From: Eubacteriales bacterium
Lineage (GTDB): Bacteria; Bacillota; Clostridia; Oscillospirales; CAG-272
Assembly: GCA_045593965.1 (NCBI GenBank)
Contig: JAZNXP010000124.1
Span: 1-53,002, forward strand
Length of the DNA: 53,002 nucleotides
Reading direction: 5' to 3'
Positions 25,725-42,954 of this stretch are shown one piece after another (positions within the stretch are counted from its first letter, which is position 1; the number at the start of each line of letters is the position of its first letter). Under the pieces are notes generated by a model. The model did no database searches. It was not told the DNA's origin and worked only from the letters and a program-made list of their open reading frames with translations. Both the position numbers and the translations under genes were made by a program.

Positions 25725-28700
25725 ATGAAATATCAATATCAACGCATCGTATCCCTCTTTCTTGCCTTACTGACGGTATTCACGGCGGTGTCGGTGCCTG
25801 TTTTCGCGGAGGATGCAACCGCAAACGCTTCCACGCAAGAGGCACTCGAATCGATCTACGATTCCGTTGGATATTCACAAGAGCTGGCAGAGGGACGCCG
25901 CATCGATCTGACGAACATTCCGACGCTGAACGGAGTCACAAATCCCACAGCGAGGGCGTATAAGATCGATAGCCTTGCGGCATATCAGAATTTTGTAACA
26001 CTTGTCAATAACGGAAACACCTTCTCGGGCAAGACCGTGTATCTGGCGTGCAATCTGGATCTTTCCTCGATTGCAAATCAAGCACCCATTGGATTTAACA
26101 AGGGTGCGGAGACAACGGCGAACACCTTTACGTCCACCGCGTCCGCGAAATTTTCGGGAACGCTGAACGGTCAGGGCTATGCCATCACGGGCATTTCCAT
26201 CACCAAGACGCTCGTTGACACCTGCTATTCCGCGTTCATCGGCTGGGCAGTCAACACAACCGTGACCGACCTTGTTCTCTCGGGAACGGTCGTGCATGAA
26301 AAAGGAACCTATTCGGGTTTGAACAACTTTGTCGGCACGGGCGGTCTGATCGCATGCGCGGAAGGTACGAATACGGTCGATAACGTATATTGCGACATCG
26401 ACGTCAAGGGCTTGCGCCAGACTGCGGGCTTCATCGCACGCGGCGGCGCGACGGTTACGAATTCGACCAATGCGGGCGACGTCATCGGCTCGGATTGCGC
26501 AGGCGGCTTCTTCGGCTTCGCAAGCGGAACTCTTTCGGCAACCAACTGTCTCAATACGGGACGTATGCAGGCAGGAAAGGTTGCGGGTATTCTGCCGCGC
26601 GGACGTACAACAACAACCATCGCAAATTGCGTGAACGCAGGTACGATGGTCGCTACGAACGGTGGTTATGCAGGTGGTATCGTCGGTGTGACGGATCACG
26701 CAAACGCAAAGGTCACCGTTTCGGGCTGTACCAACAGCGGACGTATCGTTTCCGACGGTCAAGCGAACGATTTCGGTACGCAGAATGAAGGTACGCTGAC
26801 GGTGGCAAGCGATAACAAATCGGTTCCTTACATTGGTTATAACGCAGAAGCATTCCTTGCGGTGGATCTGACCTCTGTTCCGAACATCACCGAATGGACC
26901 TCTTCCTCCACCGCGACGACGTATCAGATCACAAACGCGGCGGGACTGGTAAAGCTTTCCGAGATCGTCAGAGCAGGGAACAGCCTGAGCGGCAAGAAGG
27001 TCTATCTGGCAAACGATATCAACATGGCAGACGTAACGCTTCTGCCGATCGGTAAGTATGTCAATAGCGCGACGATGGAAAATCCCGCCAAAACTCCTTT
27101 CTCGGGGATCTTTGACGGACAGGGACACGCGATCAAAAATTTGAGCATGACCTTCTCCGAGGAGACCGAGGTCGGCTTTGGATTGTTCGGATTGCTCTCT
27201 TCGGCAACCGTTCGCAATCTGATCATTGATCAGAGCTGTACCTTTGAGGATACGATCAACAGCGGATATACGGGCATGGCTGCCATCGCGGGCTATTCGG
27301 AAGGCGCAACAACGATCACAAACGTGGCAACCTATGCGACCCTGACCTCCAAGGCACACGCGGCAGGTATGGTCGGACGCGGCGGTGTGGCAAGCATTAC
27401 GTACTGCGAAAACCGCGGAACGATCACCACCAACAACTGCGCAGGCGGTATGACAGCGTTCCGTGTTGGCGGCGCGATCAAAAATTGCGTGAACTACGGA
27501 ACGATCAATTCAAGTGCTGCGGGCGGTTTGATCGGACGTGTTTCGCATGCTGTGACGTATCAGGATCTTGTGAACTACGGCACGGTGCTTGCCAGCGGTT
27601 GGGCAGGCGGTATCGTGGGACGTACCATGGATAACGCTCTGACGCTGAACCGTTGCATCAACTACGGTTCCGTGAACGGTCACAACAGCGACGTGCTTGT
27701 GGATGGAATGTATACCGTTTGGACGGCAGAAGGCTGCAAGGGCAACGTCACGATGATCGAGTGCAGCAACCTCTATCGGGTCGGTTACAATGCGGCGAGA
27801 GTTGCCGACGTTCCGCTTCCCGTTTATGACATCAAGCATTACGATAGCATGGCAAAGCAGACGGCATACGTCGTCAGAGATGCCGAGGGCATGATCAAGC
27901 TTGCCGAGATCGTCAATGCGGGCAATACGCTCGCGGGTGTGACGGTCTATCTGACAAACGACGTCAACCTGTTTGGCAAAACGATGCTTCCCATCGGTAC
28001 GTCCACTCCCTTCAGCGGTACGTTCGACGGCAGAGGCTATGCGATTCGCGGACTGACGATGAAGATTGATTGCTCGGTAGAGGGCAATCCCAATCTGATC
28101 GGTCTGTTCGGATACGTCAGCCACGGCACCGTCAAAAATCTGACCGTGGATGCGACCTGCTCCTTTGTGCAGACGGGTGAGGATTCCACCTATTCGGGCT
28201 CGGCTTCCGCAATCGTTGCAAAGGCTAACGTCGTAACGGTTGAAAACGTCAAGAACCAAGCCAACGTCACGGGCATTCTGCACACGGGCGGCATTGGCGG
28301 ACGCGGCTCGATCTCCGCATCCTACTGTGTCAACACAGGTACGATCAAGGGTGCGAACAGCGCGGGCGGTATTTTCGCATACGCGACCAATGACGTTCTC
28401 GATTGCGTGAACTACGGAGACGTCTCTGCGGATAACGCAACCAACGGCGGTAAAGCAGGCGGTATTACGGGACGTCAGGAAAACGAAAACGTAAGATATA
28501 TCAACGCGTATAACCACGGTGTTGTCACCTCCGACTATATGGCAGGCGGTATCATGGGTGCCGTCAGAGTCGGTTGTTATATGCTCAACTGTGTCAACTA
28601 CGGCGTGGCGGCTCCTCTGCCGGGACACGACGTGATCACATCCAATCGCTACAACGTGGAAAAGGGCTATGCTCCCCAGTTCTCGGGCATGACCGTTTCG

Positions 28701-31595
28701 GATCAGACCAACATCGGATATTCCGCAGAGATCGCCGAAGCGGAAAAGGTCGACCTGGAAGCACTTCTGGCGTGCGGACTTGCAAAGAATATTGAAAATT
28801 ACAATCACGGAAAGGACAATGCGACGGTCAACTATCTGATCATCGACAGTCCCTCCGACATGCGCCGCTTTGCGCAGATCATCAACACGACTACGCGCGG
28901 AAACATCAACGGCGTGCAAAAGACCTTCTACCTCGCATGTGACATCGACATGAGCGGCTATTCCTTCACGGGCGACCGCACCGTGGCAGATGCGAATACC
29001 ATTGCCCCCATCGGTTGGGATAAGATCACCAAGGATAGCGTTCTGACCGATACTACGGCGACCGTAACGGGGCTGTATATGTGCTTTGCGGGCATTTTTG
29101 ACGGTCAGGGACATACCATCAGCGGCTTGAAGATGGGTACCGACGATGCGCAGAATTCCTATCTCGGTCTCTTCGGTTATTTGGATGGCGCGACCGTCAA
29201 GAACGTGATCATGGATGCGGATTGCAGCATCTATACGTCCGTGAGCACCAATAACTTCAAGGCAGGCATTCTCGCGGGTGGCGCATCCGCTTCCACGGTG
29301 CGCAACGTATGGACGCAGGGATTTGTGAGCGGACAGGGAATACAGATCGCAGGTATGATCGGCAGACCCTCCAACGTATCCTTCCTGAACTGTACCAATT
29401 CCGCAAACGTCAACGGCGTTGGCAACTCGGGCGGCTTTGGCGGCTTCACCTCCACGATGAAGCTTTACAGCTGCCGCAATACGGGTAATATCAGCGGAGA
29501 CTCTTACGCAGGCGGATTTTCGGCACGTGACCGTGGCACGGGAATGTATTTCCAGTGCGTCAACACGGGCAACGTGAAGTCAGCGACCTGGGCAGGCGCG
29601 ATCGCGGGCTATAAGGATGAGGAAATGACGACCCTTTACGCAAGCTGCCTCAATTACGGCTTGGTCGCAGTCAACGGTACGCAAACGGGCAAGCTCTTCG
29701 GCGGTACGCTCGATAGCACCTGTATCTTCCGTGAATTGACAAAGACTTCCTATAATAGTAAGGCGGATAATTACCACGTGGCTCAGATGCTGGATGCAAA
29801 ATATCAGATCAAGAGCAACGGCAACGGAACCTTCGATCTGCGTCTGGTTGCATCGGTTGACGGTCTTTCTTATCTCTCCGCAGGCTTTATTTTGAATGTT
29901 GAAGGTATGGGAAGCGCGACGCTGACGACCAACAAGGTCTATACCTCGATCCTCGCAACCGACGGAGAAGAGACGATCACCTATCAGCCCGCAGAGAAAT
30001 TTGCGGACACCTCGAAGTATTTCATTACTTACACCATCAAAAATCTTTCGAATGACTATCTGGCAAAGCTCGGAACCGATGCCTTCCGCATCAAGGGCTT
30101 CCTGATGACGAACGATTCCTCGCTCCTCGGATATAAGAAGATCGATCCCATTTCGATCGCCAATACCTACACGGCAAAGGTGACCACGGCGATCGGAACG
30201 ATCCACAATTTCTCCACCGCAAAGAGCTATACGCTTCCCGGCTCGAACGTCACGGTCAAGCTGCAGTATCAGGCATGGCCTTCGGTCTGCGTGGACGAAA
30301 ACGGCGTGATCTACGCGTTCATCTCGGGACGTCTTGAGCACACCGACCCGTTCGGACACCATCTGATGTACAAGAGCTACGACGGCGGCGCATCCTGGGA
30401 AGGACCGATCACGATCAACGATACTCCCATGGATGACCGTGACATCGGTATTACGTATCTGGGCGGCGGACGAATGCTCGCAACCTATTTCCGCATCGAC
30501 GCGGCAAGCTACATGACCAAGGATGATACGCTTGTCACCGCTGACGGTGTTACCATCACGGGTATGGGAACCTACACGGGATGGCAGAGCAACACGGGTC
30601 TTGGATCCACTGCTGCGGCAAGAGCTGCCACCTATGAAGCGATCAAGGCATATTGGGCGACCATGACTGCCGCAGAGCTGACGAGCGGAACGTGGAGCAT
30701 GGTCTCCACCGACTACGGTGTTTCTTGGAGCGAGCCTCTTTTGGTCCCGCTGACCACACCTCACGGTGCGATCCAGCTCTCCACGGGAGACATTCTGTAC
30801 GTTGGACGAAACGGCTCCAAGATTGTGGCGTATATGAGCTATGACGGCGGCTATAGCTGGAGCTTCAATTCCACCGTTTACGACAACTCCTCCAAGACGG
30901 GCGAATACTACGGTCAGACCTTCTGCGAGCCTCACGTAATTGAGATGAAGAACGGCAGATGGCTTGCGGCGATCCGTATTCAGGTCGAAGATATCACAAT
31001 TGACGGCGTGAAGTATACCGGAAGCGGATATCAGGCTGACGGAACACCGATCTGGAAAACCGTTATAGGCAGTGTTACCACCACATATAAGATGCAGACC
31101 GCAGCTGACGGAACCAAGAGCATGGTGGAGTATAACTATACGGGATCGCTGACCACGTACCGCATCTTTACGCAGTATTCGGATGACGAGGGCGAGACGT
31201 GGAGCAAGCCGGCACTCGTAACGGCGAAGAGCTTGGTAAGCGGTTCGATCGCGACCGATAACAACGCCGTTTACGGCACACCTCCTCATCTGGTTCAGAT
31301 GGAGGACGGCACCGTGATCATGGTTTACGCGACCAGAAACGGTAACATCGGTGAGCGCGCTCTGGTCAGCTACGACGGCGGCGTGACGTGGGGCGATGAG
31401 ATCAAGCTTTGCGATCGACCGAAGGATAAGAACTGGTCCTGGAGCTCTATGTCTTATACAGGCTACCTGGGATCGGATATCGGATATCCCGCGTCGGTTT
31501 ACCTTGGAAACGGTCAGTTTATTACCGTTTACTATCAGGCGGCAGAAGGCGATTCCTACTCCTCCTTCCTTTTCACCAAGTGGTCGTTGACGTAA
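25725..31595 (+). CDS. Giant secreted protein G1: 4 GLUG/beta-helix-like modules + beta-sandwich-like spacer + sialidase-like propeller (G subtype)
   Basis: 1956 aa from MKYQYQRIV (AGGAGG at 25715-25720). Sec signal ...PVFA|ED. Modules begin at ~25866, 26832, 27780 and 28713. Each carries [VI]GY..., AY.I, VN.GN.[FL].GK.VYL..D[IL][DN][ML], PIG, F.G.FDG.G..I..L, GLFG and ATV.NL, then NxGx[IV]...AGG[IL]xG coils. The propeller spans ~30170-31592 (LQYQAWPSVCVDENGVIYAF, SYDGGASW, STDYGVSW, SYDGGYSW, SDDEGETW, SYDGGVTW). No LPXTG, SLH or TM anchor. Confidence 0.8.
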   Translation: MKYQYQRIVSLFLALLTVFTAVSVPVFAEDATANASTQEALESIYDSVGYSQELAEGRRIDLTNIPTLNGVTNPTARAYKIDSLAAYQNFVTLVNNGNTFSGKTVYLACNLDLSSIANQAPIGFNKGAETTANTFTSTASAKFSGTLNGQGYAITGISITKTLVDTCYSAFIGWAVNTTVTDLVLSGTVVHEKGTYSGLNNFVGTGGLIACAEGTNTVDNVYCDIDVKGLRQTAGFIARGGATVTNSTNAGDVIGSDCAGGFFGFASGTLSATNCLNTGRMQAGKVAGILPRGRTTTTIANCVNAGTMVATNGGYAGGIVGVTDHANAKVTVSGCTNSGRIVSDGQANDFGTQNEGTLTVASDNKSVPYIGYNAEAFLAVDLTSVPNITEWTSSSTATTYQITNAAGLVKLSEIVRAGNSLSGKKVYLANDINMADVTLLPIGKYVNSATMENPAKTPFSGIFDGQGHAIKNLSMTFSEETEVGFGLFGLLSSATVRNLIIDQSCTFEDTINSGYTGMAAIAGYSEGATTITNVATYATLTSKAHAAGMVGRGGVASITYCENRGTITTNNCAGGMTAFRVGGAIKNCVNYGTINSSAAGGLIGRVSHAVTYQDLVNYGTVLASGWAGGIVGRTMDNALTLNRCINYGSVNGHNSDVLVDGMYTVWTAEGCKGNVTMIECSNLYRVGYNAARVADVPLPVYDIKHYDSMAKQTAYVVRDAEGMIKLAEIVNAGNTLAGVTVYLTNDVNLFGKTMLPIGTSTPFSGTFDGRGYAIRGLTMKIDCSVEGNPNLIGLFGYVSHGTVKNLTVDATCSFVQTGEDSTYSGSASAIVAKANVVTVENVKNQANVTGILHTGGIGGRGSISASYCVNTGTIKGANSAGGIFAYATNDVLDCVNYGDVSADNATNGGKAGGITGRQENENVRYINAYNHGVVTSDYMAGGIMGAVRVGCYMLNCVNYGVAAPLPGHDVITSNRYNVEKGYAPQFSGMTVSDQTNIGYSAEIAEAEKVDLEALLACGLAKNIENYNHGKDNATVNYLIIDSPSDMRRFAQIINTTTRGNINGVQKTFYLACDIDMSGYSFTGDRTVADANTIAPIGWDKITKDSVLTDTTATVTGLYMCFAGIFDGQGHTISGLKMGTDDAQNSYLGLFGYLDGATVKNVIMDADCSIYTSVSTNNFKAGILAGGASASTVRNVWTQGFVSGQGIQIAGMIGRPSNVSFLNCTNSANVNGVGNSGGFGGFTSTMKLYSCRNTGNISGDSYAGGFSARDRGTGMYFQCVNTGNVKSATWAGAIAGYKDEEMTTLYASCLNYGLVAVNGTQTGKLFGGTLDSTCIFRELTKTSYNSKADNYHVAQMLDAKYQIKSNGNGTFDLRLVASVDGLSYLSAGFILNVEGMGSATLTTNKVYTSILATDGEETITYQPAEKFADTSKYFITYTIKNLSNDYLAKLGTDAFRIKGFLMTNDSSLLGYKKIDPISIANTYTAKVTTAIGTIHNFSTAKSYTLPGSNVTVKLQYQAWPSVCVDENGVIYAFISGRLEHTDPFGHHLMYKSYDGGASWEGPITINDTPMDDRDIGITYLGGGRMLATYFRIDAASYMTKDDTLVTADGVTITGMGTYTGWQSNTGLGSTAAARAATYEAIKAYWATMTAAELTSGTWSMVSTDYGVSWSEPLLVPLTTPHGAIQLSTGDILYVGRNGSKIVAYMSYDGGYSWSFNSTVYDNSSKTGEYYGQTFCEPHVIEMKNGRWLAAIRIQVEDITIDGVKYTGSGYQADGTPIWKTVIGSVTTTYKMQTAADGTKSMVEYNYTGSLTTYRIFTQYSDDEGETWSKPALVTAKSLVSGSIATDNNAVYGTPPHLVQMEDGTVIMVYATRNGNIGERALVSYDGGVTWGDEIKLCDRPKDKNWSWSSMSYTGYLGSDIGYPASVYLGNGQFITVYYQAAEGDSYSSFLFTKWSLT

Positions 31596-31679: not shown

Positions 31680-34600
31680 ATGAACATGAATTTGAAAAAA
31701 ATAGTTCTTGTATTGCTGTCTCTGACCATGATCCTGACGAGCGTTCTCGTTCCCGTGGCTGCAACCGAGCAGACGGGGGATGCGGGCATGACCGTAACGG
31801 CGGGATACTCACAGACGCTGGCGGAAGAACGTCGTGTGGATCTGACGAATATTCCCACCGTCAACGGTGTGACGAATCCGACGGCGAAGGAATATAAGAT
31901 CGATAGCCTTGCGGCATATCAGAATTTTGTAACGCTTGTCAACAACGGCAACACCTTCTCGGGCAAGACCGTATATCTGGCGTGCAACCTGGATCTTTCT
32001 GACGTTGCAGATCAGATGCCGATCGGATACCGCAAGGGTGTTGAAGCAACGCAAAATCAGTTTACGGATACATCTTATGCAAAGTTTTCGGGCGTTTTGA
32101 ACGGTCAGGGCTATGCCATCACGGGTATCTCTATTACCAAGACGCTCGTTGACACCTGCTATTCCGCGTTCATCGGCTGGGCAGTCAACACAACCGTGAC
32201 CGACCTTGTTCTCTCGGGAACGGTCGTGCATGAAAAAGGAACCTATTCGGGTTTGAACAACTTTGTCGGCACGGGTGGTCTGATCGCATGCGCGGAAGGT
32301 ACGAATACGGTCGATAACGTGTATTGCGACATCGACGTCAAGGGCTTGCGCCAGACTGCGGGCTTTGTTGGACGCGGCGGCGCGACGGTTACGAATTCGA
32401 CCAATGCGGGCGACGTCAACGGCTCGGATTGCGCGGGCGGCTTCTATGGATATACAGGCGGCACGTTCCGCGTGGAGAACTGTCTCAATACGGGACATAT
32501 TGAAGCAAACAAAGCAGGCGGCATCGTTAGCCGCGCACGTTCGACCATCACGATCGACGGTTGCGTGAACACGGGCTCTGTTCTCTCAAAGTCAAAAAGT
32601 GGCTACGCGGGCGGTATTTTCTCCGCAACGGAGGGAACGGGTGCCAATATTACGGTCACGAACTGTGTCAACTACGGCTTCATCAGCGACCTGATCGGTA
32701 CCGCAAACGGCTTGGGTACGCAGGCAGGCGGAGCTTTGACGATGGATGAAACGAACCAAAGCGTTCCTTACGTGGGATACTGCGCGGACGGCTTCTTAAA
32801 AGCCGATCTGACGGCTGTTCCCAACATCAGCAAGTGGACGGCGGACTCGACTGAAACGGCGTATCAGATCAATGACGCGGCGGGAATGGTAACGCTTGCG
32901 ACGCTTGTCAAGGCAGGGAACACCTTCCAGGGCATCACGATCTATCTTGCTTGCGACGTGGATATGTCGACCGCGGAGGATATGATCCCGATCGGTTACT
33001 ATGCGGCGAGTGCCGCAGGCAAGCAGTCCGCTCCCTTCAAGGGTGTTTTTGACGGAAAGGGACACGCGATCAAAAATCTGGACATGGTCTTTACAAGCTC
33101 CGCACTTTCGGGCTTGGGTCTGTTCGGATATGTAAGCGGTGCAACCATTCAAAACCTCGTGATCGACAGAAGCTGCTCCTTCACGGAAACCGTCGGTGAC
33201 GCATATGCGGGCTTGGGTGCATTGCTCGGCGTTTCCGGGGGAGCGACGATCTTCAACGTCGCCAATTACGCAAGCGTTTCCTCCCTGCAGCATGCGGCGG
33301 GCTTGGTCGGACGCGACGGCTCTGTCACCATGAAGCATTGCTCCAATTACGGTACCATTCTTTCCTACAGCAACGATGCGGGAGGCCTGACGGGATTCCG
33401 CGTCGGCGGTACGGTCTCTTATTGCGCAAACTACGGCACCGTCGTCGGTCCCACTGCGGGCGGCTTGCTTTCCCGTGTGAACGCGTCGGGAGTAACGTAT
33501 CGGTATCTTGTCAATTACGGAAACGTCTACGGAGAAACCTATGTGGGCGGTATCATCGGACGGACCGAATCGGGACTTGAAACGCTGGAAAATTGCTCGA
33601 ACTACGGATATGTCGGCGGAATTGTTTCCGCAACCTCCAAGGTCGACGGTCTTTATACCGTTTATGAAGGCGTGACCGACAGTGTCACCCTGACAAACAG
33701 TAAGGATCAATACGCATTGGGCGTTGAGCCGATCACCACCGAGCATCTGAAGGACGTCCCCTTCGATATGAAGGATTATGATCTGATCGCTTCGCAAGAT
33801 GCATACGTTATCAGCGATGCGGACGGTTGGATGAAGCTGATCGAGGTCGTCAACGCGGGGAATGCGTTGGAAGGCGTTCGGATCTACTTGAATAACGATC
33901 TCAATCTTATGGGATATGCGGTTTCTCCCATCGGAACTCCCGATGCCCCCTTCCGCGGTGATCTTGACGGAAGAGGACATACTGTTCGCGGAGTACGCAT
34001 GACGGTCGACAGCTCTGTTGACGGCAATCCCGCATACGTCGGTCTTTTCGGCTTCGCACGGTTCTCGACCATCAAAAATCTGACGCTGGACGCAACCTGC
34101 TCCTTTGTGCAGACGGCGGCTAACAAGGATTCTCGCGGCGCGATCGCGGCGATCCTTGGCGGCGGTGACTCCTGCGTGATCGAAAACGTCAAGAACCAAG
34201 CCAACGTCACGGGTGCTTTGCACGCCGGCGGTATCGGCGGTCGCGGCTCTGTAAGCGCGATCAACTGTGTCAATACGGGTACGATCAAGGGCGCGAACAG
34301 CGCGGGCGGTATTTTTGCGTACAACGCGAGCCACGTCATCGATTGCATCAACTACGGTGACGTATCCGCTACGACCGTAAACGGCTCGGGTAAGGCGGGC
34401 GGTCTTGCGGGACATCAGGAAACCGAAAACACGCTGTATGCCAATTCGAAAAACCACGGAACGGTTACTGCCGATTATATGGCAGGCGGCGTGATCGGTG
34501 CGATCAGAGAAAACTGCTATATTATCAATTGTACCAACTACGGTCTGGCGGCACCGATCGCAGAATGTGACGCGCTTTCTTCCAACCGTTATCTCATTGA

Positions 34601-37352
34601 AAACGGTTATCTTCCCACGCTCAAGGGTGGCGGAGTTGCGGATCTGACGAGCATCGGCTATTCCGCGGCGATCGCGGAAGCGGAGAAGGTCAATCTCAAT
34701 GCACTCCTCGCTTGCGGCATCGCAAAAAATATTGAAGATTACAACCACACGACCGACAACGGAGTGATCAATTATCTGATCATTGACAGCGCGTCCGATC
34801 TGCAGCTTTTGGCGAAGATTACGAACGGCACGACCCGTTGCGGCGGAAAGACCTTCTACCTCGCGTGCGACATTGACATGAGCGCATATACGTTCACGGA
34901 TGACCGTACAATGGCGCAGGCAAACACCATCACTCCCATCGGTTGGGACAAAGCTCTCAAGGACGGTGTTCTGACCGACACCACCGTTGCCGCAAATCAA
35001 GTCTCGATGTGTTTCGCAGGTGTGTTCGACGGTCAGGGACATACCATCAGCGGCTTGAAGATGGGAACGGACGATTATCAGAATTCCTTCCTCGGTCTCT
35101 TCGGATTTCTCAAGGGCGCAACGGTGAAAAATCTGATCCTCGGATCGGATTGCAGCTTCTATAGCACCAATGACACCAACAATTTCAAGGCGGGCGTTCT
35201 GGCGGGCGGTGCATCCGCTTCCACGGTGCGCAACGTCTGGACGCAGGGCTTTGTGAGCGGAAAGATCGTGCAGGCAGGCGGCATGATCGGACGTCCCGAT
35301 ACGGTCACCTTCATTTCCTGTACCAACTCCGCAAACGTCAACGCGCTCGGCAATGCGGGCGGCTTTGGCGGCTTTACGGCAGGAATGCGGCTTTATAACT
35401 GCCGCAACACGGGTAACATCGACGGAACCTCTTATGCGGCGGGCTTCTCCGCAAGAGATCGTAAGGCAGGCATCTACGTTCAGTGTGTCAACCTCGGAAA
35501 CGTGACGGCGACGGGCTATGCAGGCGCGATCGCGGGCTATAAGGATGAGGAAATGACGACCCTTTACGCAAGCTGCCTCAATTACGGCTTGGTCGCAGTC
35601 AACGGCACGCAGACGGGCAAGCTCTTCGGCGGTGTCAAGAATGCAAGCTGCATCTTCCGAGAGCTGACCAAGACCAACTATAATTCCAAAGCCGATCAAT
35701 ATCACATCGCGCAGATGCTGGATGCGAAGTATCAGATCAAGGATAACGGCAACGGCACGTTTAACATTCGTCTGGTCGCATCGGTCGATGGCCTTTCCTA
35801 CCGTTGTGCAGGCTTCATCCTGACCGTGGCGGGCATGGGAAGCGCGACGCTGACCACCAATAAGGTTTATACCTCGATCCTCGGAACCGAGGGGGAAGAG
35901 ACGATCACCTATCAGCCCGCGGAAAAATTTGCGGACACGTCGAAGTATTTCATTACGTATACGGTCAAGAACCTTTCCAATGCGTATCTGGAAAAGCTTG
36001 GAACGGATGATTTTGTGATCAAGGCATTCCTGATCTCCAACGACGAAACACTGCTTGGATATAAGAAGGTCGATCCGATCGTCGTTTCCAATAAGCTGAC
36101 CGCAAAGGTCACGACATCCATCGGCACGGTGAAGAATTTCAAAACACCGCAGGTCTATGCGATCGGCAATACGGGTGTTACGGTCAACCTGCAGTATCAG
36201 GCGTGGCCGACCGTTACCGTTGACGAAAACGGTACGCTTTACGCAACCGTTTCGGGACGCTTGCGTCACGTTGACCCCTTCGGTCACACGTTGCTGTATA
36301 AGAGCACGGATAACGGTGTGACGTGGACGCCGATGGGCAACAACGGCATTATCAACGATACTCCCGTGGATGACCGTGATACGGGTATGACGTATCTTGG
36401 CGGCGGACGCATGATCATCACGTATTTCCGCGCCTCTGCCGCACAGCTGCTCAGAGTCGGACAGTCCTTTACCACGGCAGACGGTGTCGTCATCAACGGT
36501 ACCCAAAATGCGGAAACGAATTTGGGTAACTACAATACCTATACAAAGTGGCAGGACCAGGTCAGCCAAGCGCAGTATGACGCGGTCATCTCGTATTGGA
36601 AAACGCAGAATTATTCGGATCTTGGCGGCGGTAGCTGGGTCATCATCTCCAATGACTACGGAGAAACCTGGAGCGATCCGATCTCCTGTCCCACAAGCAC
36701 GCCGCACGGCGCGATCAAGCTTTCCACGGGTGAGCTTCTGTACGTCGGACGCAATGATACGCAGATCCGCGCATACGTCAGCTACGACGGCGGATACAGC
36801 TGGAATTACAATTCCACCGTATTTGACAAGGCGAACAACACCGACGAGCGTTTTGCAAGCTTTGGTGAGCCTCACGTTCTGGAGCTTTCCAACGGCAGAT
36901 GGCTCGTGGCGATCCGCGTGGAGCCCGCCTCCGGTTATATGAGCGGAAACCGTATCATCACCACGTATTCGGACGATGAAGGCAAAACGTGGAGCACTCC
37001 GCAGGTCGTGACCTCCACAAGCTCGCTGACAACGATCAGCGGCGAGATCTGCGGTGTTCCTCCTCATCTGATCCAGCTGGATAACGGAGCGATCGTCATG
37101 ACCTACGCAAGCCGCCAGAGCAATGCGCTTCGCGGCACGTACGCAGTCATCAGCTATGACGGCGGTATCACGTGGGATCAGCCCTTCGAGCTTTGCAGAT
37201 GGCTCGACGGAGCAAGCTCCACCGCACAGTCGGACAACGGTTATCCCGCAACGGTCGTTCTCAAGGACGGCACGCTGCTGACGGTTTATTACCAGTCTCA
37301 GAATAACGATTCGTACGCGTCCTTGCTTTATACCAAGTGGACGTTGAGTTGA
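31680..37352 (+). CDS. Giant secreted protein G2, paralog of G1
   Basis: 1890 aa. Signal ...VPVAA|TE. Same architecture as G1, with four modules and a spacer. The propeller spans ~36095-37349. Several nucleotide tracts are almost identical to G1 (see findings). Confidence 0.8.
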   Translation: MNMNLKKIVLVLLSLTMILTSVLVPVAATEQTGDAGMTVTAGYSQTLAEERRVDLTNIPTVNGVTNPTAKEYKIDSLAAYQNFVTLVNNGNTFSGKTVYLACNLDLSDVADQMPIGYRKGVEATQNQFTDTSYAKFSGVLNGQGYAITGISITKTLVDTCYSAFIGWAVNTTVTDLVLSGTVVHEKGTYSGLNNFVGTGGLIACAEGTNTVDNVYCDIDVKGLRQTAGFVGRGGATVTNSTNAGDVNGSDCAGGFYGYTGGTFRVENCLNTGHIEANKAGGIVSRARSTITIDGCVNTGSVLSKSKSGYAGGIFSATEGTGANITVTNCVNYGFISDLIGTANGLGTQAGGALTMDETNQSVPYVGYCADGFLKADLTAVPNISKWTADSTETAYQINDAAGMVTLATLVKAGNTFQGITIYLACDVDMSTAEDMIPIGYYAASAAGKQSAPFKGVFDGKGHAIKNLDMVFTSSALSGLGLFGYVSGATIQNLVIDRSCSFTETVGDAYAGLGALLGVSGGATIFNVANYASVSSLQHAAGLVGRDGSVTMKHCSNYGTILSYSNDAGGLTGFRVGGTVSYCANYGTVVGPTAGGLLSRVNASGVTYRYLVNYGNVYGETYVGGIIGRTESGLETLENCSNYGYVGGIVSATSKVDGLYTVYEGVTDSVTLTNSKDQYALGVEPITTEHLKDVPFDMKDYDLIASQDAYVISDADGWMKLIEVVNAGNALEGVRIYLNNDLNLMGYAVSPIGTPDAPFRGDLDGRGHTVRGVRMTVDSSVDGNPAYVGLFGFARFSTIKNLTLDATCSFVQTAANKDSRGAIAAILGGGDSCVIENVKNQANVTGALHAGGIGGRGSVSAINCVNTGTIKGANSAGGIFAYNASHVIDCINYGDVSATTVNGSGKAGGLAGHQETENTLYANSKNHGTVTADYMAGGVIGAIRENCYIINCTNYGLAAPIAECDALSSNRYLIENGYLPTLKGGGVADLTSIGYSAAIAEAEKVNLNALLACGIAKNIEDYNHTTDNGVINYLIIDSASDLQLLAKITNGTTRCGGKTFYLACDIDMSAYTFTDDRTMAQANTITPIGWDKALKDGVLTDTTVAANQVSMCFAGVFDGQGHTISGLKMGTDDYQNSFLGLFGFLKGATVKNLILGSDCSFYSTNDTNNFKAGVLAGGASASTVRNVWTQGFVSGKIVQAGGMIGRPDTVTFISCTNSANVNALGNAGGFGGFTAGMRLYNCRNTGNIDGTSYAAGFSARDRKAGIYVQCVNLGNVTATGYAGAIAGYKDEEMTTLYASCLNYGLVAVNGTQTGKLFGGVKNASCIFRELTKTNYNSKADQYHIAQMLDAKYQIKDNGNGTFNIRLVASVDGLSYRCAGFILTVAGMGSATLTTNKVYTSILGTEGEETITYQPAEKFADTSKYFITYTVKNLSNAYLEKLGTDDFVIKAFLISNDETLLGYKKVDPIVVSNKLTAKVTTSIGTVKNFKTPQVYAIGNTGVTVNLQYQAWPTVTVDENGTLYATVSGRLRHVDPFGHTLLYKSTDNGVTWTPMGNNGIINDTPVDDRDTGMTYLGGGRMIITYFRASAAQLLRVGQSFTTADGVVINGTQNAETNLGNYNTYTKWQDQVSQAQYDAVISYWKTQNYSDLGGGSWVIISNDYGETWSDPISCPTSTPHGAIKLSTGELLYVGRNDTQIRAYVSYDGGYSWNYNSTVFDKANNTDERFASFGEPHVLELSNGRWLVAIRVEPASGYMSGNRIITTYSDDEGKTWSTPQVVTSTSSLTTISGEICGVPPHLIQLDNGAIVMTYASRQSNALRGTYAVISYDGGITWDQPFELCRWLDGASSTAQSDNGYPATVVLKDGTLLTVYYQSQNNDSYASLLYTKWTLS

Positions 37353-37377
37353 TCTCCCACATTTGAATTTCAATTTG

Positions 37378-37437: not shown

Positions 37438-40400
37438 ATGAATATGAAAAAATTTCTTCTGATCGTGCTCTCTCTTGCCATGATCCTCACGGGTGTATTG
37501 GTTCCCGTGTCCGCAGGGGAAAGCGCGCAAAGCAACAATTCCGCGGCAACGGTAACCCCCACTGTCGGATATTCTCAAGCTGCGGCAGATGCGGCGCGGA
37601 TCGATCTTTCCTCGATCCCGTCCTTGAAGGGAGTTTCTTCTCCCAGTCAGAACGCCTATCAGATCGACAGTCTTGAGGCGTATGAAAATTTTGTATCCCT
37701 TGTCAACAGTAAGAACGATTTCAAGGGAAAAACAGTTTATCTTGCGTGCGATCTGGATCTTTCGCTGTTGACAGATCTTCAGACTCCCATCGGATTCCGT
37801 TCGGGGATCGAGGATCCTGCAAACACGTTCAACGAGACCGCACGCGCACAGTTCTGCGGCACCTTTGACGGTCAGGGCTATGAGATCTCGGGAGTTGCTG
37901 TCTATGCAACTATCATAGATTCCTGTTATTCCGCCCTGTTCGGTTGGGTAAACGGCGGAACGATCCAACATTTGAAAACAGAGGGATTTGTCAACCATGA
38001 TAAGGAGACGTATCCCGGTGATCATATCAACTTCGTCGGAACGGGCGGACTGATCGGATGCGCGGACGGCGCAACGGTCGTGAATAACGTCTATTGCAAC
38101 ATCGGCGTGGTCGGTTGCCTCCAATCGGCAGGCATTGTCGGTCGCGGCAGTGCAACCGTTACGAACTGCACCAACGCGGGCGATGTCTACGGTTCGACCT
38201 GCGCGGGCGGCATTGGCGGCTTCGTTTCGGGAATGACCGTGATCAACAGTCTGAATATCGGACATATCGTTTCCCCCTCGATCGCGGGCGGTATTCTTGC
38301 CCGTACGAGAGGCGTTTGCAACGTCAACGGATCGGTCAACGACGGTTGCGTTGAAAACTCGAATAACGACATCGCGGGCGGTATTATCGGACGTGCGGAA
38401 AACGAAAGCGGCGTTACCAATCTCGTCGGTTGCATCAATTACGGTCAGATCAAAACCGCGGACAACAAAAGCAACGCGTTCGGACATACCGACGGCAAGG
38501 CTAAATTGAACGTGGATGCATCCTGCGAGAGCAGAACGCGCGCAGGATACAGCACCGACCGCATCTGGCAGATGGATCTGATTCAGGTCACCGACCTCGC
38601 TTCGGTTTCCACCGTGACCAAAACGGCATATCGCATCACGAACGCGCAGGGCTTGATCCGCCTTTCCGAGCTTGTCAAGGCAGGGAACACCTTCAGCGGT
38701 GTGAAGATCTATCTGGATGCGGATATCGATATGAAGGATCAGGTCTGGGAGCCGATCGGCTACATCATGAGCTCGTCGAGCGGAACGACCAAAAAGCCCT
38801 TCTCGGGCGTCTTTGACGGTCAGGGACATACAATCTCCAACCTTGTTGCGGTACAGAATACGGACGTACGTTCGGGACTTGGACTGTTTGGCTTTGCGCA
38901 ATCCGCGACCATTCAGAATGTGATCCTTGATGCCACCTGCTCCTTTACCTTGAACGTGTCGAACGGATATAACGGCGCGGCGGCGGTGCTTGCGTATTCG
39001 GGTAGTTCCGTAACCGTGACGAATGTGATGACGTTTGCGACCGTCATCGGTAAAACGCACTCTGCGGGTATCGTTGCGCGCGGAGACGCAAATGCGTATT
39101 TCTGCACGAACTACGGATATATTTCCGGTGATAACTGCGCGGGCGGTATTTCCGCCTTCCGTACGTATGATGTGCGCGACTGTGTCAACTACGGTACGAT
39201 CCACAGCACCAGCATCGCAGGCGGTGTTGCGGCACGTATTTACGGTAACAGAACCTACCGAAATCTCATCAACCACGGAACCGTTATCGGTAAGAGCTAT
39301 GCCGGCGGCGTGATCGGACGCACCAACGGCGGTGCTCCCGTTCTTGAAAATTGCGCCAACTACGGCATGGTATCGGGACTTTATTCCAACGGTCTTTATA
39401 ACGTGACCGCCGGTGTGAATGCGGACGTGACCGTGACGAATTGCACGGATCGGGTCACTGTCGGATATTCCGCTTCCAACGTCACTCCCATCTATAACAT
39501 TGGAAAATCGATTTCCAAGTTTGCTTCAAGTCCCAATGAGTTTTCTTACTTCATTTCCACACCGCAGGAGCTCGTGACGCTTTCCGAGCTGGTGCAGGAA
39601 GGGCATACGTTCAAGGGTGTCACGATCTACCTGATGAACGATCTGAACATGAGAGGCGTGACGCTTTTGCCCATCGGCTACGGTGATCACGCGTTTGCGG
39701 GCATGTTTGACGGACGCGGATGTTCCATCTCCAATCTGAAAATGAACGTCAACAGCTCCGCATCGAACGCTCCCGAGTCTGCGGCACTCTTCGGCTTGAC
39801 GTCGAGCGCGCAGATCAAAAACCTCATTCTGGACGACACCTGCTTCATCATGCACGCAAATACCGTCGCCGCACAGCACGGCGCGGCGGCAAGTATTCTT
39901 GCAAAGAGTGAAGCCTTGACCTATGTATGTAACGTACGGAACTGCGCGGACGTCAGCGGTGCGACGTATACGGGCGGCATCGCGGGCAGAGGAGAGGTTG
40001 CTCTGATGAACTGCAGCAACCGTGGAGACGTTGTCGGCGGCAGCTTCGGCGGCGGTCTTGCGGCGAACGTCAACGGCAATATCAGCGCGTCCGAGAACTA
40101 CGGCTCTGTTCGCGCAAACGTTGCGGGCGGTGCTGTCGGCTTCCTGAATGCAGAGGACACCTTCTATACCTTCTCTTATAACTACGGCACCGTGATGGGA
40201 GCGGATTACGCAGGCGGTCTGGTCGGCGTGCTTCGCAAGAATTGTCAGATCCAAAATTGCGCAAACTATGGCGCGGTTGGATCCATGGCAAGTGCCGATG
40301 CGGTTACGGCATCCGTTTATAACGTCGAAAGCGGCTATACGGCAAACGTGACGCTGTCTCAAGGCGCGGATCGGGCTGTGATCGGATTTTCCTCGGAGCT

Positions 40401-42954
40401 GACGGACGGCGCGACCGATCCGAGTGCGCTTCTCTCCAAGGGCTTGGCAAAGAACATCGAGGATTATCAGCACACGCTCGATGCAGGTAAGATCACACAT
40501 CTGATCATTGACAGCGCATCGGATATGGCACTGTTTTCCAAGCTGATCAACACGACGACGAGCGGAGAGGGCATGACCTTCTGTCTGGCAGCAAACGTGG
40601 ATATGAATATCTATTGCTCTGAAGGTGATCATACATCCACAGCTCTCAATGATTTTGCTCCGATCGGCAGTGGAGATGTGTCTGCGGAAAAATATTTTGC
40701 CGGAATCTTTGACGGTATGGGACACACGATCAGCAATCTTCATCTGTCCGCAGGCGGCAACAGCGAGGTGATGATCGGTTTGTTCGGTAAGCTTTCGGGT
40801 GCGACCGTGAAAAATCTGATCATTGACGAAAGCTGCTCCTTCGGCGAAAACGGAAACGCGAACACCGCGGTTGCTTCTCTTGCACCCGTGATCGAGCATT
40901 CGACCGTACAGAACGTATGGACACGCGCATCCGTAGCTTCTGCGGGCAGTTATATCGGCGGCATGGCTTGCATTGCCAAGAATTCCGTTTTTGTGAACTG
41001 CACCGCCGATGCCACCGTTGTCGCGAACAGTGCTTACGCAGGCGGCTTCGTTGGTGAAGGCACGAACGTTTGTTATTATAACTGCCGCAATCTTTCCGTG
41101 ATCGAGGGCGTGACGTCCGTCGGCGCGGGCTTTACGGCAAACGACAAGGGCGACTGCATCTATTCGAATTGCACCAACCTCGGAAGCGCAAAGAACGCAT
41201 CCGTTCTGGGCGCGCTTGCGGGCGCAAAGACGGAGCAGACGACCAGTAAATACGTCGGTTGCTTCAACTACGGCTTCCTTGACGCGGATTCGCTCGTCGG
41301 AAGAGTGGATGCGGGCAGCTTTGAGCCGATGAAAAACACAAAGACTGCCGAGGACGTGGATAACTATCACTTCAACCATCTGCTTGGTGTGAAGAGCCAG
41401 ACTCGCGATAACGGCGACGGTACGTTCGATCTTCGCCTGATCGCGACGGTGGATTCGCTCAACTATCAGAGAGCGGGCTTCCGTCTGATTTACAACAACT
41501 CGATCGCGGGCTATTCGATCGACATTGACGTGCCCGTTTATACGGTATATACCTCGATTCTCGAAAACGGCAAGACCGTAAGCCCCACCGACGGATTTGC
41601 GGACACCTCCCGTTATTTCATCCTGCATACGGTGGAAAACATTCCCGACGCGTGCAAGGAGGAGCTGACGTCCAAGCTTTCGGTATTCGCAAAGGCATAT
41701 CTTGCCACCAAGGGCGGGGGATACATTGATTACTGTCCCATCGAGCCCATCGTGGTTCCCGAAAAGCTGACTCCCACGATCGAGACGAACGTCGGCATCA
41801 TCAACCGCTTTGACGTTCCGAACGTCTATGAGATCGGTAACACGGGTGTGACCGTGAATTTGCAGTATCACGCATGGCCCTCCGTGACCGTGGATGAAAA
41901 CGGTGTGCTTTACGCGTTTGCGTCCGCCCGTCTGGAGCATGTGGATCCGTTCGGACACACCTTGATGTATAAGAGCTTTGACGGCGGCAAGACGTGGTCG
42001 AAGCCGTATCTCATCACCGATACGCCCATGGATGACCGTGACGTCGGCGTTACCTACATGGGCAACGGTAAGATGCTCATTACCTATTTCCGCATCGCCT
42101 GCGCGAGCCTGATGAAGACCGACCAGTCCTTTACCACGGCAGACGGCAAGGTGATCAAGGGCAACGGCACTTATACGACGTGGCAAAAGCACAAGAACGT
42201 TGAGCAGAAGCACATCGACGCGGTTCTGGCATATTGGAGCACGCTCCATTCCTCCGAGATCTCCGCGCAAAGCTGGTGCCGCATCAGTGAGGATTACGGC
42301 GCAACGTGGACCGAACCGATCACCACGCCACTCTCCACACCTCACGGACCAATCCTGCTCCGCAACGGCAACCTGCTTTACGTCGGACGCGCAAGCGTTA
42401 CGGGTGTTGGCGGTGACGGTATTTACGCATTCATCAGCACGGACGGTGGATATACATGGAATTTCAAGGCGAAAATTTATGAAAAAATCGATGCGACCTT
42501 CTGTGAGCCCCACGTTGTGGAGCTTTCCAACGGCAGATGGCTGGTTGCCATTCGCGTGCAGGACGGTGGCTTTGAGAACGAATACCGCATCTACACCTGC
42601 TATTCGGATGACAAGGGTGAGACGTGGACGCAGCCCAAGCTCGTGACCGACAAGAACGGCAAGGAGCTTTACGGAACGCCTCCGCAACTTATCCAATTGG
42701 ATAACGGCGCGGTCGTGATGACCTACGCAAGCCGCAGACAGGCGGATAGCGGTGAATACGCGATCATCAGCTATGACGGCGGCATGACGTGGGACGAGGA
42801 GATCTGTCTCTGCCTGCGCAAGGGCGGCACGAGCGATATCGGATATCCCATGACGGTACACCTTGGAAACGGTGAGCTTGTTACGGTCTACTATCAGGCT
42901 TATGAGACAGACAGCTATTGCTCGTTCCTCTATACCAAGTGGTCGCTGAAATAA
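37438..42954 (+). CDS. Giant secreted protein G3, more divergent paralog of G1/G2
   Basis: From ORF 37363..42954. I start it at MNMKKFLLIV (ATG 37438), giving 1838 aa. Signal ...PVSA|GE. Four GLUG-like modules, a spacer, and a propeller at ~41761-42951 (LQYHAWPSVTVDENGVLYAF, SFDGGKTW, SEDYGATW, STDGGYTW, SDDKGETW, SYDGGMTW). Confidence 0.8.
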   Translation: MNMKKFLLIVLSLAMILTGVLVPVSAGESAQSNNSAATVTPTVGYSQAAADAARIDLSSIPSLKGVSSPSQNAYQIDSLEAYENFVSLVNSKNDFKGKTVYLACDLDLSLLTDLQTPIGFRSGIEDPANTFNETARAQFCGTFDGQGYEISGVAVYATIIDSCYSALFGWVNGGTIQHLKTEGFVNHDKETYPGDHINFVGTGGLIGCADGATVVNNVYCNIGVVGCLQSAGIVGRGSATVTNCTNAGDVYGSTCAGGIGGFVSGMTVINSLNIGHIVSPSIAGGILARTRGVCNVNGSVNDGCVENSNNDIAGGIIGRAENESGVTNLVGCINYGQIKTADNKSNAFGHTDGKAKLNVDASCESRTRAGYSTDRIWQMDLIQVTDLASVSTVTKTAYRITNAQGLIRLSELVKAGNTFSGVKIYLDADIDMKDQVWEPIGYIMSSSSGTTKKPFSGVFDGQGHTISNLVAVQNTDVRSGLGLFGFAQSATIQNVILDATCSFTLNVSNGYNGAAAVLAYSGSSVTVTNVMTFATVIGKTHSAGIVARGDANAYFCTNYGYISGDNCAGGISAFRTYDVRDCVNYGTIHSTSIAGGVAARIYGNRTYRNLINHGTVIGKSYAGGVIGRTNGGAPVLENCANYGMVSGLYSNGLYNVTAGVNADVTVTNCTDRVTVGYSASNVTPIYNIGKSISKFASSPNEFSYFISTPQELVTLSELVQEGHTFKGVTIYLMNDLNMRGVTLLPIGYGDHAFAGMFDGRGCSISNLKMNVNSSASNAPESAALFGLTSSAQIKNLILDDTCFIMHANTVAAQHGAAASILAKSEALTYVCNVRNCADVSGATYTGGIAGRGEVALMNCSNRGDVVGGSFGGGLAANVNGNISASENYGSVRANVAGGAVGFLNAEDTFYTFSYNYGTVMGADYAGGLVGVLRKNCQIQNCANYGAVGSMASADAVTASVYNVESGYTANVTLSQGADRAVIGFSSELTDGATDPSALLSKGLAKNIEDYQHTLDAGKITHLIIDSASDMALFSKLINTTTSGEGMTFCLAANVDMNIYCSEGDHTSTALNDFAPIGSGDVSAEKYFAGIFDGMGHTISNLHLSAGGNSEVMIGLFGKLSGATVKNLIIDESCSFGENGNANTAVASLAPVIEHSTVQNVWTRASVASAGSYIGGMACIAKNSVFVNCTADATVVANSAYAGGFVGEGTNVCYYNCRNLSVIEGVTSVGAGFTANDKGDCIYSNCTNLGSAKNASVLGALAGAKTEQTTSKYVGCFNYGFLDADSLVGRVDAGSFEPMKNTKTAEDVDNYHFNHLLGVKSQTRDNGDGTFDLRLIATVDSLNYQRAGFRLIYNNSIAGYSIDIDVPVYTVYTSILENGKTVSPTDGFADTSRYFILHTVENIPDACKEELTSKLSVFAKAYLATKGGGYIDYCPIEPIVVPEKLTPTIETNVGIINRFDVPNVYEIGNTGVTVNLQYHAWPSVTVDENGVLYAFASARLEHVDPFGHTLMYKSFDGGKTWSKPYLITDTPMDDRDVGVTYMGNGKMLITYFRIACASLMKTDQSFTTADGKVIKGNGTYTTWQKHKNVEQKHIDAVLAYWSTLHSSEISAQSWCRISEDYGATWTEPITTPLSTPHGPILLRNGNLLYVGRASVTGVGGDGIYAFISTDGGYTWNFKAKIYEKIDATFCEPHVVELSNGRWLVAIRVQDGGFENEYRIYTCYSDDKGETWTQPKLVTDKNGKELYGTPPQLIQLDNGAVVMTYASRRQADSGEYAIISYDGGMTWDEEICLCLRKGGTSDIGYPMTVHLGNGELVTVYYQAYETDSYCSFLYTKWSLK

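Follow-up and report, generated by a model that had tools for sequence, protein, structure and literature searches.

Three giant secreted proteins of an uncultured gut Clostridia bacterium combine four GLUG-type modules, predicted to be beta-helices, with a sialidase-superfamily propeller

The 53,002-nucleotide stretch of DNA considered here (contig JAZNXP010000124.1 from an uncultured gut Clostridia bacterium; hereafter, the window) encodes three giant proteins, G1, G2, and G3, in which a long array of repeated modules is joined to a C-terminal propeller. Their genes are seen, in the list of open reading frames (ORFs) and its translation, as three very long plus-strand ORFs at 25668/25725-31595, 31680-37352, and 37363/37444-42954, and the proteins are ~200 kDa and Sec-secreted. 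Judging from the sequence around the candidate start codons, G1 (25725..31595, 1956 aa) most likely begins at the ATG at 25725, which has an AGGAGG ribosome binding site just before it. Likely starts are the ATG at 31680 for G2 (31680..37352, 1890 aa) and, for G3 (37444..42954), an ATG at 37438 (1838 aa) or 37444 (1836 aa) rather than the TTG at 37363.

All three proteins share the same domain order: a Sec signal, four homologous modules, a beta-sandwich of ~130-150 aa, and a C-terminal six-bladed propeller with Asp-boxes. In G1, the signal peptide (aa 1-28, 25725-25808, assigned by hydropathy) is followed by modules at 25860-26825, 26826-27773, 27774-28706, and 28707-29714, delimited by head motifs and module alignment, then by the beta-sandwich (~29715-30164) and the propeller (~30165-31592). 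The corresponding plus-strand features of G2 are the signal peptide (aa 1-28, 31680-31763), modules at 31794-32765, 32766-33740, 33741-34646, and 34647-35642, the beta-sandwich at 35643-36089, and the propeller at 36090-37349. Those of G3 are the signal peptide at 37444-37515, modules at 37558-38535, 38536-39453, 39454-40374, and 40375-41310, a beta-sandwich at ~41362-41760, and a propeller at ~41761-42951. By hydropathy, the sole hydrophobic segment in each giant is the N-terminal Sec signal, ending in VFA, VAA, or VSA. No LPXTG-like motif was found in G1-G3, and there was no Pfam match to SLH (S-layer homology), choline-binding, or dockerin domains. A previous sequence-only reading of the window had proposed that each G protein carries a Sec signal and has no recognisable anchor; the single N-terminal hydrophobic stretch agrees with the first proposal, and the lack of LPXTG, of wall-binding Pfam matches, and of any C-terminal hydrophobic segment agrees with the second.

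The three proteins are collinear end to end in BLAST alignments, with pairwise identities of 59% (G1/G2), 45% (G2/G3), and 42% (G1/G3), and G3 is identical to a protein already present in databases (P0005). The identity between G1 and G2 is a mosaic, being 74-86% over residues 108-308 and 1121-1420 and ~50-60% elsewhere. Within these high-identity tracts (26046-26648 and 29085-29984 in G1), third-position identity in conserved codons is 65-84%. Mosaic identity combined with raised third-position identity suggests that the tracts arose by gene conversion. A promoter and terminator scan between the G genes identified neither promoter-like nor terminator-like sites above shuffled expectation, and these tandem paralogues are probably co-transcribed.

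Head motifs of the form F-x-G-x-[FL]-[DN]-G-x-G-[HYC] occur exactly four times in each of G1-G3, defining modules of 302-336 aa. Head-motif counts and module alignments together bear out the four homologous modules per protein that the sequence-only reading had described, at ~310-350 aa each. The [VI]GYS opening that it assigned to every module is present in 11 of the 12 G modules and absent from G2 module 3, and the Asn/Gly coil periodicity is visible in the module consensus (N-x-x-N-x-G-x-V ... A-G-G-I-x-G, with a period of ~25-30 aa). The G modules align with each other and with those of two proteins encoded further downstream, A1 (two modules) and A2 (three), giving 17 modules in the window; BLAST E-values between modules range from 1e-10 to 1e-80, far outside the chance range. 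Identity is 38-75% between modules at equal positions in different proteins and 27-42% between modules at unequal positions. Since equal-position modules are the closer ones, the four-module array is older than the triplication.

Family searches give little direct indication of what these modules are. Pfam and NCBIfam have nothing significant in the first ~1320 residues of the giants, and a phmmer search of the PDB with the 1392 aa N-terminal part of G1 returned chance matches only. Single modules score 12.8-17.2 bits (E 0.007-0.18) against the Pfam GLUG family PF07581, under its gathering score of 20.5 bits, and these sub-threshold scores mark the window modules as divergent GLUG members. The more distant relatives in databases are giant Firmicutes proteins that carry PF07581 (GLUG) together with PF05342 (Peptidase_M26_N).

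Structure prediction points in the same direction. An AlphaFold model of G2 modules 2 and 3 (aa 363-989) has a mean predicted local distance difference test (pLDDT) score of 89.3 and consists of two solenoids of short strands, with an alpha-helix ahead of each. In a Foldseek search with this model the top match was 3N6Z (E 6.6e-6, template modelling (TM) score 0.62), and the IgA1 metalloproteases 7UVL, 7UVK, 6XJA, and 6XJB were matched at probability 1.0. A profile built from all 17 modules matches 3N6Z at E 2.5e-8 and the NTD2 domain of 7UVL/7UVK at E ~2-5e-7; in 7UVK, the IgA1 protease of G. haemolysans, the match (~5e-7) covers residues 1088-1290. These residues are within the NTD2 beta-helix 'gating' domain (PMC9637739). 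The beta-helix fold expected by the sequence-only reading is thus what structure prediction returns, in the two-module model and in its matches to 3N6Z and the IgA1 proteases, and the modules can be modelled with high confidence as right-handed beta-helices homologous to those of the GLUG/IgA1-metalloprotease NTD2 type.

The best structure and sequence match to a single module, 3N6Z (BACOVA_03286 of Bacteroides ovatus, a 'putative IgA1 protease'), shares its helical cap, its F-x-x-x-FDG-x-x-H head motif, and its coils of the AGGI-x-G type, but is a stand-alone domain of 339-363 aa with no enzyme fusion. The M26 IgA1 metalloproteases of S. pneumoniae and G. haemolysans (6XJA, 7UVK) resemble the giants in placing a GLUG-type beta-helix N-terminal to an enzyme within a giant Gram-positive exoprotein; the NTD2 beta-helix of these enzymes packs on the protease and gates its active site (PMC9637739). 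They differ in having one beta-helix where the giants have four, and in being LPXTG-anchored, which the G proteins are not. Furthermore, the Pfam scan of G1-G3 identified no peptidase family, and in particular no HExxH peptidase domain (Peptidase_M26_C), so the giants are not M26 peptidases.

The sequence-only reading had also described the array as a rigid stalk of more than 1200 aa, and this part did not survive modelling. Each module beta-helix is separately capped in the model, and the junction between G2 modules 2 and 3 is modelled with low confidence (pLDDT 51 at residues 321-330, predicted TM score 0.69), which leaves a single rigid rod of 1200 residues unsupported. An arrangement of beads on a string is, from this model, at least as likely as a single rigid rod.

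Lower in the Foldseek list, the module model matches PL6 (polysaccharide lyase family 6) proteins, AlgE, pectate lyases, and tailspikes, all of which represent generic right-handed parallel beta-helices. These matches, to PL6 alginate lyases, AlgE epimerases, pectate lyases, tailspike depolymerases, and proteins of glycoside hydrolase (GH) families GH55 and GH110, could be taken to mean that the modules are themselves polysaccharide lyases or hydrolases, and the giants chains of several enzymes. This we consider extremely unlikely, because the TM scores of 0.12-0.29 reflect the generic fold only, and the true homologues, 3N6Z and the IgA1 protease NTD2, are non-catalytic domains. In addition, the columns that are invariant across all 17 modules contain Gly, Asn, Phe, Pro, Ile, and Leu and provide no acidic or basic catalytic set, while in the FDGxGH head the Asp and the His differ from module to module. 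On the basis of the alignment, the invariant columns are read as a structural, non-catalytic Asn/Gly ladder.

C-terminal to the modules, the motif YQIK-NGNGTF-LRLVASVDGLSY-AGF is found in all of G1-G3, as are the propeller motifs QYQAWP...VDENG...RL-H-DPFGH. Pfam identifies the propellers through BNR_2 (PF13088) and BNR matches; the BNR_2 scores are 50.8 bits for G1 (E 1.9e-13), 53.6 for G2 (E 2.7e-14), and 67.3 for G3 (E 1.9e-18), with a gathering threshold of 31.4 bits. NCBIfam gave no match to the giants or to their cytoplasmic-type paralogue B10, its sialidase models included. From 65 aligned sequences, AlphaFold models G2 aa 1321-1890 with a pLDDT of 85.4 as a beta-sandwich of eight strands leading into a propeller that has six blades, a short helical insert, and five Asp-boxes. 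The top Foldseek match is 5HX0 (Dfer_1899; E 2.6e-18, TM score 0.75), followed by GH33 sialidases, NEU1, and KDNases, with many GH33 structures at probability 1.0. A profile of the propeller family ranks PDB entries similarly: the E-value is 2.7e-34 for 5HX0, lies between 1e-15 and 1e-8 for GH33 enzymes, and is 2e-8 for 3A71, a GH93 enzyme. By these matches the propeller is assigned to the sialidase superfamily and to Pfam BNR_2, and the distinct propeller subtype recognised by the sequence-only reading corresponds to a group with its own invariant motifs, closest to 5HX0.

What that reading had called a strand-rich spacer is, in the model, a folded beta-sandwich. Bacteroidetes sialidases with an N-terminal carbohydrate-binding module (CBM) align over ~640 columns in Foldseek, sandwich and propeller together, placing the sandwich of the giants at the position of the CBM. 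The giants therefore resemble P. gingivalis PG_0352 (8FEB), B. thetaiotaomicron BTSA (4BBW), and BDI_2946 (4FJ6) in having a sandwich followed by a six-bladed Asp-box propeller and, probably, in the blade register of a Tyr, a Glu, and two Arg. In contrast with these CBM-bearing GH33 enzymes, the first triad Arg and its Glu partner are absent here, and identity is 12-17%; the Bacteroidota enzymes, which are lipoproteins or periplasmic proteins, also have no beta-helix array. The best structure and profile match, 5HX0, is a structural-genomics protein of Dyadobacter fermentans and shares with the window propellers the motifs E...R, ...R, and DLGYP in blades 4-6 and the lack of the FRIP Arg (AFP in 5HX0, AWP here). 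It differs in being a single-domain Bacteroidota protein of ~400 aa, with neither beta-helix modules nor sandwich; DDRD and R-x-x-H, which are invariant motifs in the Clostridia clade, are missing from it.

The hallmarks of GH33 are a Tyr nucleophile activated by a Glu, an Asp acid/base, a trio of arginines for the substrate carboxylate that includes the Arg of the (F)RIP motif, and Asp-boxes (PMC4747158). Residue numbers in the following comparison are those of the G2 C-terminal fragment, to which 1320 is added for full-length G2. Invariant residues in the 65 family members are W189, P190, S205, R207, H210, D244, R246, D247, H356, E410, R426, R492, Y535, and Y551. In alignments to NanA and NanH, the RIP arginine falls on Ala/Gly188, followed by the invariant Trp189-Pro190, in 65/65 members; R207 aligns with the conserved second arginine of blade 1; and the acid/base Asp (NanA D372) falls beside D212, which is Asp in G1-G3. 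The NanH sequence used, which we take to be that of S. typhimurium NanH (381 aa, like chain 1DIL_A), reproduced the aligned coordinates of the profile search. A forced hidden Markov model (HMM) alignment of this NanH to the family profile for E231, R246, R309, and Y342 was blade-shifted and uninformative, and residues in blades 4-6 were mapped by counting Asp-boxes and from strand positions in the G2 model.

Mapped in this way, E410 and R426 would be the counterparts of GH33 E231 and R246, with E-x15-R spacing in both families just ahead of the fourth Asp-box; R492 in blade 5 would correspond to R309, and Y535 (in DxGYP) in blade 6 to Y342. Both Y535 and E410 (in EPH) are invariant; in the model each opens strand A of its blade (6 and 4, respectively), as the Tyr and Glu of GH33 do, a register read from motifs and strand positions. 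The strand end that holds E361 in the S. typhimurium GH33 enzyme reads Y551-Q552 here by motif and model strand, the Tyr being invariant and the Gln present in 61/65. In full-length G2, the predicted active site spans 36204..37295 (+; the W1509 to Q1872 codons), as defined by invariant columns in the 65 family members and 10 giants. It would comprise A1508-W1509-P1510 at the GH33 R-I-P position, R1527, H1530, D1532, D1564-D1565-R1566-D1567, H1676, E1730, R1746, R1812, Y1855, Y1871, and Q1872, from the register with NanA and NanH and from strand positions in the model.

The GH33 arginine triad is therefore incomplete, with the FRIP Arg replaced and R426 and R492 invariant at the expected second and third Arg positions. 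Because of this incomplete triad, the propeller is placed, by its sequence, outside GH33 as defined. The coupled loss, across the clade, of the first Arg and its positioning Glu argues against classical sialidase specificity, and catalysis of a related type is favoured by the conservation of the Tyr, the Glu, and two Arg. The 'putative exo-glycosidase' of the sequence-only reading remains a reasonable label, with the qualification that this is not a canonical sialidase, given Ala/Gly for the FRIP Arg in 65/65 members and Tyr/Gln for the partner Glu.

These observations bear directly on the proposal that the propellers are ordinary GH33 exo-alpha-sialidases that free N-acetylneuraminic acid (Neu5Ac) or N-glycolylneuraminic acid (Neu5Gc) from host mucins, which would make the giants large sialidases of the NanA/NanI/NanJ type. 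Relatives are publicly annotated as 'exo-alpha-sialidase', fold and profile matches include many GH33 structures, and the Asp-boxes are present. In a related locus (L006), a protein of the dihydrodipicolinate synthase (DHDPS) family encoded at 9147-10073 (+), directly after a GLUG gene of the A1/A2 type, has its best match to N-acetylneuraminate lyase models (206 bits, with a cutoff of 281). We nevertheless regard this proposal as quite unlikely, since the FRIP Arg is Ala/Gly188 next to an invariant Trp in all 65 members, the positioning Glu has become Tyr/Gln, no NCBIfam sialidase model is matched, and the nearest relative, 5HX0, is not a characterised sialidase. Moreover, no nanA/E/K/T set is present in the window or beside the cytoplasmic relatives, whose neighbours, like those of the window genes, are other glycosidases (GH78, GH43, GH51, GH2, and GH38). 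A context of sialic acid catabolism was rejected, the L006 aldolase being a single sub-threshold match and the DHDPS gene of another related locus, L005, being a true dapA. S. pneumoniae NanA and C. perfringens NanI and NanJ are similar to the giants in being secreted or surface proteins that combine a sialidase-fold propeller with non-catalytic modules, and multimodular Gram-positive sialidases can have several paralogues per genome (PMC4747158). Their accessory modules are CBM40, CBM32, FIVAR, or dockerin-like rather than GLUG beta-helices; they have the full Arg triad and no 14-copy expansion, and NanA is LPXTG-anchored.

The giants are found within a 38-kb cluster in which the same propeller also occurs as six lipoproteins, two cytoplasmic-type proteins, and one frameshifted copy, all on the plus strand. 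The run of paralogues begins directly after mgsA (13404-13787). The lipoproteins B1-B5 (14245-15609, 15593-16975, 16986-18446, 18475-19836, and 19916-21226; BNR_2 E 1e-13 to 2.5e-16) each have a lipobox and a Thr-rich linker followed by a propeller with 32-39% identity to that of G2. B7 (22556..24088, likely start near 22628; BNR_2 E 5e-19) has the same organization, with a propeller at 37% identity. Between them, B6 (21196..22589) has no signal peptide and contains one frameshift near 21750, from frame 0 to frame 2, reflecting either a pseudogene or an assembly error in this metagenome-assembled genome (MAG). Downstream of the giants, B9 (43082-44515, 477 aa; BNR_2 E 1e-21) and B10 (44588-46018, 476 aa; E 2e-19) lack a signal peptide; among the paralogues they come nearest to the G propellers, at 43-44% identity.

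This distribution is relevant to the idea that the giants are adhesins, with the propeller acting as a lectin-like head at the tip of a fibre made of beta-helices. Adhesins often contain beta-helix arrays, there are weak Foldseek matches to Ag43, UpaB, and SRRP, and the propeller clade has no known activity; however, the same propeller, with its invariant set of Tyr, Glu, Arg, His, and Asp, is found in cytoplasmic proteins of ~360-480 aa, in the window and across Clostridia. Since these residues also map, by the register above, to GH33 catalytic positions, an adhesin function appears very unlikely.

Directly upstream of G1, U8 (24160..25656, +) encodes a lipoprotein of 498 aa with the lipobox LVLCAC. 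Pfam, NCBIfam, and PDB searches with U8 itself gave no match, but SBP_bac_1 (PF01547) or SBP_bac_8 (PF13416) is present in some of its 29 relatives, which marks it as a divergent family-1 solute (sugar)-binding lipoprotein, and it is kept beside propeller genes in related loci (L001 and L003-L006). At the other end of the cluster, A1 (46321..48834, +) and A2 (49055..52834, +) each have a signal peptide, a linker rich in Thr/Pro (A1) or Thr/Pro/Asp (A2) after their two and three GLUG-type modules, respectively, and a C-terminal transmembrane helix ending in KKKED. Module alignments and this C-terminal segment agree with the earlier description of A1 and A2 as membrane-tailed proteins made of G-type modules. 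Upstream of the paralogue run is a divergent unit on the minus strand (7205..12218), with genes for an AraC regulator (11469-12218), a GH78 alpha-L-rhamnosidase (9031-11367), and a lipoprotein (7205-9001).

Comparisons with other genomes indicate that the complete architecture is rare. A search of 5.8 billion proteins identified only nine full-architecture relatives, G1 and G3 among them, and a search of 1.84 billion representatives gave 214 matches below 1e-30. Two of the full-architecture relatives are in NCBI MAG assemblies (L001 and L002), in similar clusters: L001 has three-module and four-module giants, four cytoplasmic propellers, a U8 homologue, and two A-type proteins, and L002 has one giant among seven propellers. 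The three-module giant of L001 (5071-9906, +; 1612 aa) lies directly upstream of the four-module one, so module number differs between neighbouring paralogues. In a scan of species-representative genomes, relatives were found only in MAGs of uncultured Clostridia/Oscillospiraceae, from sources such as the colon of roe deer and the rumen of sheep. Cytoplasmic relatives of ~360 aa adjoin genes for AP_endonuc_2, URO-D-like, GH43, GH51, GH2, and GH38 proteins and sugar transporters, with no nan operons.

Domain mapping reveals a graded series in which a signal peptide is followed by n GLUG modules and then by the sandwich and propeller, with n = 0 (P0236, P0254), 1 (P0224, P0227), 2 (P0222, P0230), 3 (P0221), and 4 (P0002, P0005), all from uncultured Clostridia. 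Further proteins have three or four GLUG modules and the sandwich without the propeller, and no C-terminal transmembrane helix was seen in any of these. Database proteins of other bacteria (P0092, P0013, P0080, P0023) join GLUG-type modules to domains of the SASA esterase, heparinase II/III, beta-lactamase-fold, and Exo_endo_phos types, and also to SLH or dockerin anchors. The GLUG module is a part that giant exoproteins reuse widely. The fusion in the window was called unusual in the sequence-only reading, and its architecture is indeed rare; the difference is one of degree, since the 0-4 module series exists and GLUG modules are joined to many other enzymes. As far as could be found, four GLUG modules with this propeller have not been described, and the giants are the long end of a graded series of known part types, which extends known modular surface enzymes and is not a new type of system.

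A conserved core recurs in other loci. In L003 and L006 this includes an AraC regulator, a lipoprotein propeller, U8, and a GLUG protein, the last ending in a transmembrane tail in L006 and being cut by the contig end in L003; AraC genes flank L003, L004, and L006. Full-length matches in L003 and L006 were considered as fusions and rejected, the propeller and the GLUG modules being separate neighbouring genes. That these are separate in L006 and fused in the window provides a Rosetta-stone argument for shared function.

The sequence-only reading had named A1 and A2 as candidate partners of the giants. On this view, G1-G3 would be kept at the cell surface by non-covalent contacts between their beta-helices and those of the anchored A1 and A2, forming a cell-bound enzyme scaffold. 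Such docking would be compatible with the model set out below, and its components can be recognised in the sequences: the same module type is present on both sides, A1 and A2 have a C-terminal transmembrane anchor, A-type genes accompany propeller genes in L001, L003, and L006, and the Rosetta-stone pattern links adjacent GLUG and propeller genes in L006 to their fusion here. This pattern, however, speaks for shared function and not for docking. In L002, which has a four-module giant, the 10 kb around it contain no A-type gene; anchors are likewise absent from the related secreted proteins that have 0-3 modules, and literature searches gave no known GLUG-GLUG docking and nothing useful on GLUG function. 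We consider docking of this kind unlikely.

The results above establish how the domains are ordered, their folds and homologies, the residues that are conserved, the localisation signals, and a gene neighbourhood that recurs in other loci; the evidence favours G1-G3 being secreted, unanchored, modular glycan-trimming enzymes with a long reach, in a locus for staged nutrient acquisition; we put the probability of this at roughly 60%. Catalysis, the class of substrate, the role of the beta-helices, and a tiered flow between compartments are what we infer. In this model catalysis would reside in the propeller, which most likely acts as a retaining exo-glycosidase; a Glu would activate its Tyr nucleophile (E1730 and Y1855 in G2, from conservation and model position), and two arginines (R1746 and R1812) would hold an acidic group of the substrate. 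Specificity would be unlike that of Neu5Ac sialidases, since the FRIP Arg and its Glu partner have gone family-wide. The beta-helix modules, taken to be non-catalytic, would most likely serve as an extended arm, in polymer binding, or both, and the beta-sandwich may be a CBM-like helper, at the CBM position of Bacteroidetes sialidases. Breakdown could then proceed in tiers, with the secreted giants attacking polymer, the lipoprotein paralogues B1-B5 and B7 working at the membrane surface where U8 would capture products, and the cytoplasmic B9 and B10 finishing imported oligosaccharides, likely under AraC-type control.

Several points weigh against this model. The putative acid/base D212 is Asp in 37/65 family members and Cys in 28/65, although the invariant DDRD motif could be an alternative source of the acid/base Asp. 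Catalytic residues in blades 4-6 were mapped by blade counting and motif register, in a region where GH33 HMM alignments are blade-shifted. The closest structure, 5HX0, has no assigned function, and a literature search on 5HX0/Dfer_1899 found no paper. The window contains no genes for an ABC permease or ATPase and no nan-type catabolic genes. Signal peptides are the sole source of the predicted tiers, and glycan binding by the beta-helices is putative.

A more far-reaching interpretation, possible but held tentatively, is that the AWP/DDRD clade (5HX0-like) constitutes a new glycoside hydrolase family with an arginine-dyad site, acting on a sugar other than Neu5Ac within a Gram-positive counterpart of polysaccharide utilization loci. 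Plant or microbial glycans may, for example, provide the substrate in the form of a different ulosonic sugar or another acidic one. GLUG proteins, whether membrane-anchored (A1/A2) or fused to enzymes (G1-G3), may then be surface parts for glycan capture, and the 14-fold expansion of paralogues may allow many different linkages to be handled across three compartments of the cell.

Should the propeller clade prove to be active with a new specificity, this would be a new activity of the sialidase superfamily, abundant in uncultured Clostridia of herbivore guts, among proteins that public annotation now labels as sialidases. The locus provides a natural experiment in which one putative catalytic domain is found in three settings (secreted giants, lipoproteins, and cytoplasmic proteins), and is suited to the study of staged glycan breakdown in Gram-positive gut bacteria. 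Furthermore, the series of 0-4 modules could reveal the role of the widespread GLUG beta-helix domain when it is fused to enzymes.

Some minor features were also recorded. Antisense ORFs of 1525 aa (32796-37373, −) in G2 and 1203 aa (39526-43137, −) in G3 were rejected as genes because their translations are low-complexity and rich in R/A/D/V, representing stop-poor reverse frames of Gly/Asn/Thr-rich genes. A scan of the window with Rfam returned no RNA family. In L006, the gene that follows the NanA-like aldolase is of the Raffinose_syn (GH36-like) type. URO-D-like genes are close to propeller relatives in L004 (2496-7552) and L010 (249-1346 and 9203-10255), and L004 also has a RACo corrinoid activator; URO-D-like proteins and RACo are parts of corrinoid methyltransferase systems. 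The lipoprotein of the upstream divergent unit (7205-9001, −) has 598 aa, the lipobox LFAC, a Thr-rich linker, and faint BNR_2 similarity; it could represent a propeller that has diverged very far. The gene at 12329-13282 (+), which separates the AraC/GH78 unit from the propeller cluster, encodes a protein similar to inosine-uridine nucleoside hydrolases (PF01156, E 7.6e-23), with scores far under all NCBIfam equivalog cutoffs.

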